Shown one piece after another: positions 29,039 through 49,253 of a stretch of 64,000 nucleotides of DNA (positions are counted from its first letter, which is position 1; every line of letters starts with the position of its first letter). Below the pieces are notes generated by a model. It worked only from the letters and a program-made list of their open reading frames with translations. It was not told the DNA's origin and searched no databases. This DNA is from Vermamoeba vermiformis (taxonomy: Eukaryota), in NCBI GenBank assembly GCA_045837725.1, contig JBEWZL010000237.1:62001-126000 (forward strand), read 5' to 3'. The position numbers were made by a program, and so were the translations under genes.

Positions 29039-29205
29039 GCTTGATTGTAGTCTATGAGGCCATCGTCCTGTTAGTTGCTAATAAATATTGCAAACTCAGG
29101 TCCGCTATTGTAAAGCTCTGAAAGTGTCAGTCGCGTCAACAAAATCACCCGAAGCTTCTTCGTTCTCTAACCACTTAATTACCTTAAAGAGGCAACACAA
29201 CTCAT

Positions 29206-30686
29206 ATGACACGAGCTTCATTAGTCGCTGTGCTCGTAGTAGCATGTCTGGCCCTTAGTAGTCTCGGCGTTCACGGATGGGGCTCCACTGGCCACAAAAC
29301 AGTTGGTAATTTCCTTAATTATCGAGGAAATGGAATTTATTAAATGACACGATACCTAGTGTCGAATTTATTGACGATTTACAAGTCACTCGAAATTCAG
29401 CTTTACAATTCCAAAGTCCCTTTATTGATTGTATTTATTAGCCGCTATTGCCAATGGCATGTTGAGCCCGAAGGCTAAGACCGCGGTAACAACTTGGCTG
29501 GGAGCTGGACAAGACATTGTAAAAGTGTCCATCCAAGCCGATGTCTACAAGCACGGTGCTGGCAAATGGACAAGCTCGATGCATTTTGCTAACGTGCCTA
29601 GTAAGTTAACAGATTGCTGATGTGATTGATGCTCGTCAACAAATTTGTTTCAAGATGGGATCTTATTTTATGACACGTTAGACCCGCCATCTTCCTCATG
29701 ATCATGATACTATCATAACAATTAATGAGAGGCAAAATACTGACTTCAATAATTTAGGAAGCGCATCTGAGTTTACAATGCAAAATGGTTGTTTGGATAA
29801 CTGCATCGTGAAAGCTATTCAAAACTACACGTCCATTTTGAAAGCAAGAAAGGTACGATTACTTTACTGCCGAAAAGAACGCGGTTCTCGCCTGCTGGTA
29901 TCCCCTAATTGTTTTCGAGCGAATGCTGGCTCGGGTTGTTTTACCAACACGAGCAACTTCCAACCAAATTAGTGCACCTCCCAGCCGGTGATGTTAGACA
30001 TACTCCTTGATCATTACCTAACTTACCTGGTGCATAGATTCCATTTACCTTTTTGTTTATTTTTTTTTTTGATCCGATCCTGGTTTTAATCGTGTTGCTA
30101 GCCTTTCTTCTTTCCCTCGCCTAACTGGGAGATTAATGAACCCTCGCCTATCGCATTCTTGGTACACCTCGTTGGCGACGTGCATCAGCCTCTGCATATT
30201 TCGTGAGTACACACTAGATTTGCTCTCGTGCCAACTCCAGCAACTACTAACGAACTAAAATAGATTCGCTGACGATAAAGGCGGCAACAATGTGGTTGTG
30301 ACATGGTTTGGCCAACAATCAAATCTGCACGCTCTATGGGATGACGGGATACTAAGCAAATTGAGTACGTGGTGACTGGCCTACAGGTGTCTGCCCTAGC
30401 CATACTAATTCCGTATTTAGGCAAGGATTACAATTCACTCGCGAAGGAGCTGACTGATGAGATAAACAAGAACCCAGCAATCATGACCAAATATTCCAAA
30501 TCTACCGATCCCGTTCAGTGGGCGAGAGAGTCGTTCCTCATCACGAAGGATATATACAAAAAATTGCCTAGCAATTTGTCGTCGAAAAATCAAGCATACG
30601 TGGACAGCAACAAGCAAACTGTGAGAGAACAGCTGATGGCTGGAGGTATCAGACTTGCCAAGCTTCTTAACCAGATTTTTGGTTGA
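29206..30686 (+). CDS. Secreted S1/P1 nuclease (copy 1)
   Basis: Signal peptide followed by WGSTGH; ADVYK, HF, FLVHLVGDVHQPLH, DKGGN, NLHALWD, WARES, GGIRLA. Confidence 0.92.
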
Positions 30687-30878
30687 TAATAGAGTAATGT
30701 GCTCGTGTGTAGCTATTATATCAAATAAAATGTATTCTATGGCAGGGAATCTTACAATTCGACAATTGTCGGTTTGCAACGGTTAGTCGACAAACAGTTT
30801 TTGTGCGCATAATCACACCAATTACTGTTAGCTCTAACACAACAGCAATTTTGTTGCGATTATAACTGTTACTTGCTA

Positions 30879-32387
30879 ATGAGAGCTAGTCTGATTGTTG
30901 CCATATTTGTTGCAGTTTGCTTGGGCAGCTCGATCGTGAGCGCTTGGGGTACTACTGGCCACAAAACTGTTGGTATGAATAAATAGTGGCTAAACCCCGC
31001 TATTTATTACGACCTACATTCGTTCTCACCCTTCCTCTAGCTGCCATTGCTGAACAGCTCTTGGACAAATCCGCAGCCAGCGCGGTTACCACTTGGTTGG
31101 GCAGTGAAGACTCAATGGTCACTGTCGCCATTGAGCCTGATATCTATCGCTATGGCAATGGCAAATGGACTTCTTCATACCACTACTGCAATCTTCCTCG
31201 TAAGTTTCGACAAACTTTTTTTTCGAGCAGAGATACGAAATATAAATACATAATTAATACAAATGATATTTATGGTACATATTGTCGTAATCTTGCTTGT
31301 TTTGGGATATTCAGATCGATCTTTATTCTTTGTTGTACCATTACCAGGCTTCATTCTTCGCAACATTATTAATGTTAATTAAACACACATTATGCTTTAT
31401 TGTATGATCTTATGTACGTGGCCTATTATTAATAATAATGAAATCAGTGGTCACAAAGTCAGATCATCGAAAAGGCACCTATTAATAGGTTACTTCTACC
31501 TACAAATATTTATAATTGCCTATTAAGACTTTAAAATAAGTTTATCATAGACGATTGGTTAATTAAGCTCTTCCTAGTTTTTTGATTTCGTACTCATTTT
31601 TTGATCACAAAAAGGTTCTGCCAAGAAGTTTACTATGAAGAATGGCTGCCCTAAAACTTGTGTCATCACTGCCATTCAAAACTACACTAGCATCCTCGAG
31701 AAGGTTGAAGTAAGTAGCGAGGACGCAACGTAGTCATTAGGGCTCTTTTAACGCTTGTCTGCCTAGCCCACCCCAGATATTGTTACTGACTGGCGTGATG
31801 TCGAGCCCTCTCCTGTTTCGTTCTTAGTCCACTTCATTGGTGACATTCATCAGCCTCTGCACATCAGGTAATGCTTCAAAAAGTCTTCTTTTGCTCGCGA
31901 TCCAGTTCTCATCTTGTTCTCTTGCAGCTACGAGGACGACAAGGGTGGCAATGCAGTCAAGGTCACTTGGTTCGAGCACTCGCACACCAACTTGCACTCT
32001 GTTTGGGATGACCGCATCCTCAACCACACTGGTACGTGCCCAGATCTCGAGCGCATTTATCCATCCGTACTAACCCTATTGTCTCATGCAGGCATGTACT
32101 GGCCTGAGTTGTCCAAACAATTGCTCGGCATGATCAAGAAGGACCCTTCAATCATCTCCAAGTACGCGCAAGACATGGACCCTGTCAGCTGGGCCCAAGA
32201 GTCCTTTGCCATCACTCTTCAAGTCTACAAAGAGTTGCCTGCGGAGCCAATTAACTTCGGCCAGGAGTACTTCGACGAGTGGTACCCTGTCGTTCAACAG
32301 CGCTTGCTCGCTGGTGGTATTCGCCTCGCCAAGCAGTTGAATCAGATTTTTTCTTCTTCGAAGAGCAAATCCGGCCGTTACAATTAG
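30879..32387 (+). CDS. Secreted S1/P1 nuclease (copy 2, tandem paralog)
   Basis: Signal peptide followed by WGTTGH; FLVHFIGDIHQPLH, DDKGGN, NLHSVWD, WAQES, GGIRLA. Confidence 0.92.
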
Positions 32388-43109: not shown

Positions 43110-44986
43110 TTATTTTGCCTTGGACGCACCTCTCAAGGCGTTCAACTCTTGCAAATTAGGCAAGTACCAGTACTGGCCTCTGTCGCACGTGGAGAAGGTG
43201 AATGTCGCGTCAGCCACGCCCTGTCCATGACACGTGTCAAACGCAGCACAGCACTACAACCGCACTACTTACGTCCTCGAGTCCAGTCATGCGGTCCAAC
43301 AGCTTGTCAAACTTGGCGGGATTGTTGCTGTACGCGATGAAGAACAGCCCGTGCAGTCCGCTGTGATCGCCAAACGGCATGGACTGGCGCACTATTTTCA
43401 CCTCGCGACCCTTCTCATCGAGCACGAGACGCGATGAAGTTCGGTGCACGTGACTCGACTGTGGCAAGGGGTCCAATTCCGCGCTGAAGTCCTTGGTGCG
43501 CCCAATCACCTGCTCTTGTTCTTTCACTGAACGGCTGTGCAGGGCCTTCAAGTTGTGCAACCAGCGCTGTGTCATGATGTAACTGTCAAACAGCGGTCAG
43601 TACGCCTGCAGTCCAGACATCAGAATGACACGTGTCACTCACCTGCCTCCGCGGTGGCCCTTGTCCTCGCTGCCAATCAGTGACTCGTCGGCACGGTCCT
43701 CTTCGCCCGTCACATTCATCGTGCCGTCAATGAAGCCACTCAAATCGCGGTTGTCTTGGAACACCCAGCCATAGCTGTCACGTGTCAGTGCTGTACGGCA
43801 TTGACACCTTTTGATAATTATGACACCTGTCACTTACATGTCCTCGACCTTGGCCACAGAGCCAGGCGGCAATGATTGCAAAAATTCATTCACAACCTCA
43901 TAGGCGAGACCGCGAGTCTTGGCCTTGATGTGCACGAAGATCTGCAAAGAAACGAATCAGTCAGTGACACGTGTCAAACAGAGGTCAGCACGCACTTCAC
44001 CACCAGTGGCGGGCATGCCACCATTCGTGCTGCTGCGCGTGTGATAAGTGCGAGCGTTGCGCGGCACTGACAGGCCTGACACTTCACGCGTCAATCTTTG
44101 CCAGAATTCGGGGCTATATTTGGACGTGTCAGTTACAGATCACCTAATGACGTGTTGACACTTGCCTGAATGCCACACCACCCACTGCGCCCTCGCCGTT
44201 GATGCGTTCTTCCCTGCTGACTGGTGACACCTGTCAAACGCGTCAAAATGTGGTCTAGTGTGGCACTTGACACGTGTCATTTTACCTTCTCTACAATCTT
44301 TTGAATATTTGCAGCTGCGGCAGCGACTTGCTTGGGGTCAGCGGCGTAGGCTAAGTGAACTGATGCAAAGATTAGACTGACAGCCATTGCCATTTAAGGA
44401 AATAGTTCGTACCAGTGACGTACGCAGCGTGTTGATTTCCTTCACTGAACGGTGTGGGTTGCGCGAGTGAAGTCTGTGGAGGTCAGTCACGTGATTTCAG
44501 TCATTGCAAGTATTTATGTGACGCACCAACTTCTCCTGTGCCTCAGCGGTGAGTGACTGCGCGAGGTGATTGGCCACGTGCGTCAAGTGACTGTTGTTGG
44601 TGAAGAGTGCTGACGTCACGTAACACGCTGCGGATGTCACGCCCACTCCGAATAGCACTCGCGTCACCTGACCTGCGAGGCATTAGCGCTGCAGACAAAC
44701 AATACTGTCGAATATACTCACGCTTGGTTGCTTGCTTGGCAGTGCTGGTCAGTGCTCGTTGTACTAATTAGGCAGTGAGTTTGAATATCGTAAAATTTCA
44801 ATTACAGAATAAATCGAAAAACTTTTCGCGCACTCAATATTACTGCATTGTATTGTCTTTTTTTATTACCTTGTTGCTTGTTGCTACGCGCAGCAAATAA
44901 TTTCAAAGCTGAAAATGCAGAGTTAGAGACCTTTATCAAGTACTCATACTGTAGTGCTTACTGCCACGGCTAACTCGGCTGAACAT
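43110..44986 (-). CDS. Dye-decolorizing (DyP-type) heme peroxidase with predicted mitochondrial presequence, about 12 exons
   Basis: VAFSPEFW, MPATGGEIFVHIK, RDLSGFIDGTMN (GXXDG), TQRWLH, EQVIGRTK, SHV, IVRQSMPFG, GLFFIAY; N-terminus MFSRVSRGTLKLFAARS. Confidence 0.9.
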
Positions 44987-48068: not shown

Positions 48069-48418
48069 AGGTGTGCGTGGAGGTGTGGTCTTAGCTTGTT
48101 AAAAGTGATGTTAAATGCTGCTCGGTGCAACGGTCACTGGTTGATTTCAGCGCTCAACCAGGGCTCGGCACGTGATTGCTGCAACGGATACTTGCCTTAT
48201 TTGGTACCAATAAAAACTAAGTCGTGTAAGTTCATTTCGTTTCAAAAGCACGTAATTCGATATACTTATATTCACATTACTGCCGCACCTTGCAGTGCTT
48301 ACCTTGATCCAACCAAACGGAACTGCACTAAAAACAAAACAATACTCGCTCCTCTTGAAGACAACTATTTACAATTAAAATACTATGTACATGGTTACTA
48401 AGACGCCGTTCCTTCGCT

Positions 48419-48518
48419 GCACATTAAATCAACCCAGATCTTGGTCCGCAGCACTCGATCGAGTCAATTCGATTCTCAAAGCACTGGTTCATAACAGATC
48501 TGCGCCCATTTAATGCGC
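48419..48518 (-). promoter_or_regulatory. Eukaryotic type II SECIS element in the 3' UTR of the small selenoprotein gene
   Basis: Minus-strand fold: helix I GCATTAAAT/ATTTAATGT plus CAGATCT/AGATCTG; core AUGAA (48492-48488) opposite GGAC (48447-48444); helix II CAGTGCTT(T)GA/TCGAGTGCTG with G-U pairs; unpaired AA at 48474-48473; apical mini-stem TCGA/TCGA. Confidence 0.85.
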
Positions 48519-48549
48519 TACATAGTCTCGCGTCTTATGATATTGAATA

Positions 48550-48951
48550 CTACTTCTGAAGATTGCGCACTAGCTCGGCAAATGAGCTCTGAATTGTGTC
48601 CTCACTGCCACTCTTGTGCGTATTTGTCTTAGTGTCGTGAGTGCTGCTGCCAGTGCTGCGTGTGTTCTCGTGTCCAGAACAGCGCTCTGAGTGCGGTATG
48701 CCGTGCAGAGCCTGTTCGATGTGCAGTCCTCAGCCTGTGCGGGATAATTAGTGGTAATTCAATTTCGAAAATAATAATTATTTTTAAATTCTGTATCGTT
48801 GATTATCGTAGATTTTATTTAAATAATATTATATTTATGTTAAGTAAATTATTAGACGTGCAATGAAATTAGATCCGGAGTTTGTCTTCAAAAGCAACTT
48901 ACCGACCCAAGTCCACTTTTGACACTGCTTACACCTCACTTTTTGGCACAT
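48550..48951 (-). CDS. Small (77 aa) Cys-rich putative selenoprotein; exon 1 48951-48903, exon 2 48734-48550; in-frame TGA at 48732-48730
   Basis: Canonical GTAAGT...CTAAT...CAG intron (48902-48735); spliced translation MCQKVRCKQCQKWTWVG(U)GLHIEQALHGIPHSERCSGHENTRSTGSSTHDTKTNTHKSGSEDTIQSSFAELVRNLQK*; SECIS downstream. Confidence 0.85.
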
Positions 48952-49253
48952 ATTTGTACGACACTAATACTACACTTGTGTCGTGCACTGCTGCTACGAG
49001 TTGATTGAACCGGCATTGGGCCATTTTCAGTGAAATTCACGGCCCTGGTCCAGCGCAATGATATCATGCGACACAGTGCAGCATTTCAGTCTGTTGTCAG
49101 TGCAAGTGATGGCGCGTCGTTGATTGTATATTGAATTGATATTACACGCGAGCAATTAATCGACTGTTTGGGGCTGCAAAACTCCATCTCGGTCGAAAAA
49201 TGTTTTCGAAATGTTTGTCATCGATAAAAGTGGCCAAAAAAATGGTTGATAAT

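Follow-up and report, generated by a model that had tools for sequence, protein, structure and literature searches.

Does the long hairpin on the minus strand at 48419..48518 function as a SECIS element, and if so, which UGA does it serve? The window, by which we mean the whole 64,000-nt stretch of Vermamoeba vermiformis DNA analysed here, contains upstream of the hairpin and on the same strand a two-exon gene whose reading frame opens with an ATG at 48951, runs through an in-frame TGA, and closes with a TAG at 48552-48550. A first-pass annotation made from the letters of the DNA had called the hairpin a canonical type II SECIS lying downstream of a UGA-containing gene. We propose that it is a functional eukaryotic form-2 (type II) SECIS, a reading to which we assign a probability of roughly 0.87. 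SECIS elements as such are textbook biology; this one matters because it supplies a second, independent line of evidence for a selenoprotein.

Structure and strand specificity of the hairpin

The minus-strand letters quoted in the first-pass annotation match 48518..48419 exactly. When the segment 48525-48410 of the minus strand is folded with RNAfold, the minimum free energy is −43.9 kcal/mol (z = −4.37), and none of 200 dinucleotide shuffles is equally stable; in the same test the plus strand reaches only −25.9 kcal/mol (z = −2.16), a value equalled by 8 of 200 shuffles. The annotation had argued that G-U pairs confine the fold to the strand of the gene, and the two energies fit this: six of the 35 base pairs of the minus-strand fold are G-U, with which the weakness of the plus-strand fold is in keeping. 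The plain minimum-energy structure pairs one A of the apical AA. Leaving both adenines and the core quartet unpaired, as in a SECIS-type fold, costs 0.5 kcal/mol and gives −43.4 kcal/mol.

The SECIS-type fold displays each of the parts that the annotation had listed, namely a long helix I, an internal loop, the AUGA/GA core, and an apical mini-stem. Helix I comprises three segments of 11, 3, and 7 bp (48518-48508 with 48429-48419, 48506-48504 with 48433-48431, and 48502-48496 with 48441-48435). A 5' loop, GUU, separates it from the 5' core AUGA (48489..48492), which is followed by A48488, and on the opposite side the 3' core GGAC (48444..48447, with its GA at 48446-48445) is followed by the 3' loop CA. 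A C.C mismatch (C48487.C48448) lies directly above the quartet. Helix II (span 48449..48486) encloses the apical part and contains 8 + 2 bp (48486-48479 with 48456-48449 and 48477-48476 with 48458-48457) with U48478 bulged, close to the 10 bp or so that had been estimated. Between helix II and the mini-stem, G48475, A48474, and A48473 form an unpaired 5' bulge, and its AA (48473..48474) stands, as had been claimed, 13 nt above the core, counted from the end of AUGA+N. Helix III (48459..48472) is a 4-bp mini-stem of UCGA with UCGA (48472-48469 with 48462-48459) closed by the 6-nt loop AUUGAC.

The hairpin is prolonged by an outer 8-bp stem, in which 48529-48536 pairs with 48400-48408 of the minus strand, so that nearly the whole 156-nt 3' UTR forms one structure. 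A variant contig that does not include the partner base alters position 48532 within this outer stem. Folded as a unit, the complete 156 nt (48549-48394, minus strand) reach −56.6 kcal/mol (z = −5.44), and no shuffle among 200 is as stable. Sequences of near relatives provide a limited view of how the hairpin varies. Within its 100 nt the variant haplotype carries two changes: C48504 to U, which preserves the pair with G48433 as U-G instead of C-G, and G48507 to C, which falls in a bulge. The 31-nt linker carries two to four changes. Evidence for covariation in the helices thus consists of a single one-sided change, C48504 to U, seen in near relatives only; no Sec orthologue from a distant organism came to light.

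A helix of unusual length, with an outer stem that spans nearly the whole UTR, is also what might be expected of a generic 3' UTR structure with a role in stability, localisation, or 3'-end processing, or of an inverted repeat. Under such a reading the resemblance to a SECIS would be due to chance, and the UGA would either terminate a 17-codon ORF, as in a decayed gene, or be leaked through by a near-cognate tRNA. We regard this as unlikely. The window contains no second copy of the hairpin arm (one match at up to three mismatches, none expected), and further evidence on both sides comes from the SECIS patterns and from the protein, as described below.

Comparison with SECIS patterns, filters, and covariance models

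How closely does the hairpin conform to published descriptions of SECIS elements? A descriptor of our own making proved too permissive, returning six loose matches in the window, and the SECISearch1 PatScan patterns (strict, default, loose, and loose+) were used instead, re-implemented by us from Supplement S1 of PMC3753652 and run outside the original program. As given there, the pattern consists of a helix I of 8 nt, a loop of 3-13 nt, ATGAN, a second strand element p2 of 11-13 nt, AA, a spacer, the paired p2, NGAN, and a loop of 3-10 nt. The hairpin matches all four of the re-implemented patterns. The strict pattern is by itself no rarer than chance, since it finds five matches on the two strands of the window compared with 4.5 ± 2.1 per dinucleotide shuffle (n = 40 shuffled windows), and this background of 4.5 matches per shuffled window is a point in favour of the generic-structure alternative. 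Two further considerations weigh against it. First, at about five matches per 128 kb of both strands, we estimate the chance of a strict match in one given 156-nt UTR and on the correct strand at about 0.5%. Second, the hairpin is more stable than every match found in shuffled sequence: the constrained energy of the 88 nt under the pattern is −28.4 kcal/mol, which undercuts 180 of 180 strict matches (lowest −24.3) and 225 of 225 default matches (lowest −27.0) in the 40 shuffled windows, a comparison whose energy threshold was set after the candidate was known. The four other strict matches in the window, at 30975 on the plus strand and at 43719, 6245, and 3216 on the minus strand, have no SECIS-shaped fold. 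The one at 30975 is a chance match within an S1/P1-nuclease gene, at an exon edge.

The SECISearch3 filter limits considered here are a stem 2 of 7-15, an apical loop of at most 30, a bending of at most 2, and an energy below −4. Applied by hand, they enclose the values of the hairpin, which has 12 levels, one one-sided bulge, 17 nt from G48475 to A48459, and an energy of −28.4 to −43.4 kcal/mol. The AA, unpaired at 0.5 kcal/mol above the minimum, and the 4-bp helix III with its 6-nt loop agree with form 2. It is, moreover, a stem-loop in a 3' UTR, on the sense strand, with an in-frame UGA upstream. The UGA-to-core spacing is 237 nt in the spliced mRNA, above the minimum UGA-to-SECIS distance of 51-111 nt stated in PMC3753652.

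The core is less regular. The consensus for the 3' core in that paper is KGAW; with AUGAA on the 5' side and GGAC on the 3' side, GA/AG pairs can form and K is present as G, while the position of W (A or U) is occupied by C. When the grading code of Supplement S4 is worked through by hand, GGAC and the C.C mismatch together would cost 0.6 points and the hairpin would receive grade B, or grade A given a Covels score of at least 15.

The first-pass annotation had proposed scoring the hairpin with SECIS covariance models, and here the outcome went against it. Rfam 15 at gathering score matched no family anywhere in the window, SECIS included, and searches at E ≤ 10 with 601 nt and 126 nt around the hairpin likewise gave no SECIS-family match, although the library presumably includes the eukaryotic SECIS family RF00031. 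A snoU54 row in these searches is a chance match. The lack of an Rfam match is a further point for the generic-structure alternative. We consider it a failed test, yet not a decisive one, because SECIS elements outside the Metazoa are difficult for standard models: PMC3753652 describes non-metazoan elements as the hardest to predict, and bioRxiv 10.1101/314781 records a detected SECIS for only five of 16 fungal selenoprotein candidates. The designation "canonical" therefore has to be softened. The listed hallmarks and the location on the strand of the gene stand; the C in place of A or U after the GA, the C.C mismatch, and the missing Rfam match depart from the canonical element.

The probable transcript that carries the hairpin

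Is the hairpin part of the mRNA that contains the UGA? Contigs from three public sequencing runs of three studies (X1, X2, and X3, whose status as RNA is guessed, not on record) delimit a small two-exon gene on the minus strand. A 425-nt contig of X2 covers 48980 to 48396 and includes the entire hairpin; its start sets the minimum extent of the 5' UTR at 48952..48980, a segment with no ATG ahead of 48951. The coding part of exon 1 (48903..48951) holds the ATG, 16 codons, and the first base of a Gly codon. A 168-nt GT..AG intron (48735..48902) interrupts this Gly codon in phase 1, and exon 2 (coding part 48550..48734) begins by completing it, proceeds directly to the in-frame TGA at codon 18 (48730..48732), and ends with the TAG. 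The hairpin starts 31 nt past this stop, and the 3' UTR extends over at least 156 nt (48394..48549), the contigs reaching 48394 in X1 and 48396 in X2. The splice joint 48733|48902, which skips 168 nt (CT..AC on the plus strand), is present in contigs of both X1 and X2, and a contig of X3 continues past exon 2 to take in 15 letters of exon 1. The first-pass assignment of hairpin and gene to one strand is thereby upheld: contigs that carry the spliced joint traverse 48518-48419, in runs whose RNA status is guessed.

Could these contigs instead be DNA, derived from intron-less relatives or from a retro-copy? In that case there would be no proof that transcription passes through the hairpin, and the hairpin could still be a SECIS. 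Such an origin is in line with the guessed label of X1-X3, and in X17, a run recorded as RNA from a relative of 90-95% identity, five of nine partly fitting reads pass unspliced from exon 2 into intron-like sequence. The form of the contigs points the other way. All are 95-425 nt long and confined to 48394-48980, with zero depth in the intron and on both flanks, and the longest records in the same runs measure 7-12.7 kb. From this shape we infer that the X1-X3 contigs are transcripts, and we judge a DNA origin to be quite improbable.

For the TGA itself, none of the runs, X1, X2, and X3 included, lists a change, and the listed changes explain all of the differences in X1 and X3 and eight of ten in the X2 piece; this also argues against a generic hairpin behind a decayed gene. 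The UGA lies in the last exon, 2 nt past the only exon junction. Under the exon-junction rule, a stop codon in the last exon is not expected to trigger nonsense-mediated decay, and the mRNA would therefore escape such decay if the UGA were read as a stop. Directly 3' of the UGA, a stretch of 70 nt folds no better than shuffled sequence (z = −1.67, 15 of 200 shuffles), and a recoding hairpin of the SRE or bSECIS type directly after the UGA was rejected on this result.

UGA as a stop codon in this genome

An alternative that would make a SECIS superfluous is that the organism generally reads UGA as sense, as Cys or Trp. The position of the TGA, exactly at a Cys of the relatives, would agree with it. 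The coding sequences of the window do not. Of the ORFs of at least 200 codons delimited by TAA and TAG only (n = 96), ten lack TGA altogether. These ten, which include a 1902-codon midasin exon, total 4573 codons, and the background frequency of TGA is 2.1% of triplet positions. In addition, the UVB_sens gene stops at a TGA located eight residues beyond the end of its C-terminal domain. UGA is thus generally a stop codon in this genome and the UGA at codon 18 is an exception to that use, and we regard general reading of UGA as sense as scarcely credible.

UGA at an invariant cysteine of a family of very small proteins

What protein is encoded on the two sides of the UGA? Exon 2 alone matched nothing in Pfam or in a word-indexed protein search. 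A query reading through exon 1, the intron, and exon 2, compared with 1.84 billion proteins without a word index, retrieved P0004 (72 aa, E = 8.2e-4) and P0005 (67 aa, E = 9.4e-4); the remaining match, P0003, aligns with the intronic segment of that query and was discarded as junk. A search with P0004 returned 80 relatives of 42-84 aa, all labelled 'hypothetical protein', and the family accordingly comprises more than 80 small proteins. The clusters that bear organism names belong to freshwater Actinomycetota. A look-up of P0005 in the Atlas gave eukaryotic clusters of 57-72 aa with scores of 0.92-0.93, which we treat as a lead only. Searches of Pfam, NCBIfam, and PDB sequences gave no match for the family.

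Alignments of 16 homologues and of 46 sequences (alignment A2) define the invariant residues of the family as M1, C2, C7, C10, K12, G17, C18, G19, H21, and C35. The protein of the window keeps M1, C2, C7, C10, K12, G17, G19, H21, and C35, and at C18 stands the TGA. It aligns with the Cys of a G-C-G-x-H motif in all 16 aligned homologues, as it does in A2, and the proposed Sec codon would convert this motif to G-U-G-x-H. Profile comparison with hhalign places exon 1 on columns 1-16 of the family profile (probability 96.7, E = 3.5e-10, 69% identity to the consensus over 16 columns) and exon 2 on the profile from column 16 onward (probability 98.7, E = 4.5e-16, 48% identity over 29 columns); splicing thus restores the family architecture exactly. 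Beyond the TGA the family residues H, G, P, C, and GH are retained, and by the kind of comparison used in Seblastian the UGA falls on the Cys of the homologues with at least three conserved residues on each side. Retention of family invariants in the frame past the TGA, at E = 4.5e-16, is also difficult to reconcile with a UGA that merely terminates a 17-codon ORF.

Do other members of the family contain Sec? A metagenome scan with exon 2 yielded 38 loci, Cys forms throughout, obtained with search patterns that demanded a Cys codon, so that Sec orthologues could not show up among them. One of these loci (L021:1890-2130, plus strand), on a eukaryote-like contig with a GC content of 0.33, encodes a Cys form whose 63-nt GT..AG intron agrees in position and phase with that of the window gene, lying within the Gly codon before the Cys. 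Examination of 600 nt past the stop codon in four Cys-form loci of low or mixed GC, L021 included, gave no strict, default, or loose SECIS matches.

The chemistry of the family can be approached from its sequences and predicted fold. We propose that its members are probably small, Cys/His-rich, metal-binding or redox proteins. An AlphaFold2 model of the homologue P0004, built with 46 sequences, has a pLDDT of 66.7 overall and about 80 over residues 1-40, and it displays two short hairpins and a helix. Foldseek found nothing for this model in the PDB at E ≤ 0.001, and its weak rows are zinc-finger-like. A metagenome homologue (L007:279-692, plus strand) is fused in one ORF with a BolA-like domain (PF01722, 33.7 bits against a cut-off of 25.7, E = 4.6e-8). 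Judging by this gene fusion, the family may be connected with iron-sulfur or glutaredoxin-linked biology, or with thiol redox biology, and we offer this as a lead.

A candidate selenoprotein family

The gene served by the SECIS appears to represent an uncatalogued selenoprotein family, where "uncatalogued" is meant provisionally. The motif strings of the family are absent from the candidate selenoproteins in those files of the SECISearch3 supplement that were searched, all of them outside file 1. A full-text literature search with the motif strings gave only unrelated papers among the matches listed (the best 10 of 75), and a search on new protist selenoproteomes returned two papers, both unrelated. 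The reach of all these searches ended before the sequence tables of later selenoproteome surveys. On balance we favour, with some reserve, the view that this gene is the first Sec-containing member of an undescribed family of very small Cys/His-rich proteins and hence represents a selenoprotein family new to eukaryotes. In this view Sec takes the place of an invariant Cys that is probably a metal ligand or redox-active, and a link to iron-sulfur or thiol metabolism is possible. The family as so conceived is widespread in freshwater Actinomycetota, is present in eukaryote-like contigs, and has one BolA-fused member.

We propose the following model for the decoding of codon 18. The hairpin occupies the greater part of a short 3' UTR in a two-exon mRNA, and its AUGA/GA core would adopt a kink-turn to be bound by SBP2 or an orthologue. 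The bound complex would deliver eEFSec with Sec-tRNA to the ribosome at the codon-18 UGA, 237 nt upstream. Reading of this UGA as Sec would yield a 78-residue protein in place of a 17-residue peptide, and the Sec would substitute for the invariant Cys of the G-C-G-x-H motif. Kink-turn geometry, protein binding, and Sec insertion enter this model as deductions from the sequence and its fold. A tRNA search of the window found none.

Several consequences follow if the SECIS serves this UGA. An apparent 17-codon ORF becomes a selenoprotein of 78 residues, one that routine annotation would overlook. Since Sec usually marks a catalytic or redox-active residue, the SECIS offers a way into the study of an uncharacterised and widespread mini-protein. 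The hairpin is, in addition, a non-metazoan SECIS left undetected by Rfam, which makes it useful for improving SECIS models. We consider the significance moderate; it lies chiefly in the selenoprotein family brought to light by the SECIS.

Comparison with known systems

The closest counterpart is the eukaryotic SECIS of form 2 as described in PMC3753652. Both are 3' UTR stem-loops with a helix I, an internal loop, AUGA and GA on opposite sides, an unpaired AA, and a helix III; the helix II of the present hairpin, with 10 pairs over 12 levels, its passage through the strict PatScan pattern, and its distance of 237 nt from the UGA agree with that description as well. It differs in having GGAC where KGAW is expected and a C.C mismatch directly above the core. 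Its helix I is, in addition, very long (21 bp plus the outer 8-bp stem), and Rfam misses it.

Fungal SECIS elements lie about 40-420 nt past the stop codon according to bioRxiv 10.1101/314781. The hairpin resembles these elements of early-branching fungi, and non-metazoan elements more broadly, in lying tens to hundreds of nt past the stop and in being hard for standard models; unlike them, it shows a pattern that is easily seen, and it starts only 31 nt past the stop.

Bacterial SECIS elements (bSECIS) deserve mention because the homologues of the window protein are mostly bacterial, and they too direct Sec at UGA. A bSECIS sits inside the ORF, immediately 3' of the UGA, whereas here the signal is located in the 3' UTR and the 70 nt past the UGA have no significant fold.

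Finally, in comparison with the proteins of freshwater Actinomycetota and of eukaryote-like contigs that share the arrangement MC-x4-C-x2-C ... G-C-G-x-H ... C, the window protein retains every invariant except C18, where it has TGA for the proposed Sec, and it is further distinguished by its phase-1 intron and by a longer Ser/Thr-rich tail.

Genomic neighbourhood

The genome is a compact eukaryotic one, and the genes that surround the locus are thymidine kinase, UVB_sens, DnaJ, midasin, TAF4, TAP42, GCD14, and DRG. The thymidine kinase gene (PF00265; 46986-48098, minus strand) lies on the same strand, about 300 nt downstream of the last base seen in the mRNA, and intergenic spaces are very short throughout the window, the gap between the thymidine kinase and selenoprotein genes included. 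At 29188-31372 on the plus strand, two adjacent S1/P1-nuclease-like gene starts encode similar N-terminal peptides, with a Pfam match only for 30983-31372; the similarity of these peptides suggests a tandem duplicate. It is the exon edge of the second of these two genes that coincides with the chance strict-pattern match at 30975. The segment 22001-24000 has an AT skew of 0.447 and a GC skew of 0.169 on the plus strand, values that set it well apart from the remainder of the window, and contains several long overlapping ORFs; possibly it is coding sequence of low complexity or rich in purines.
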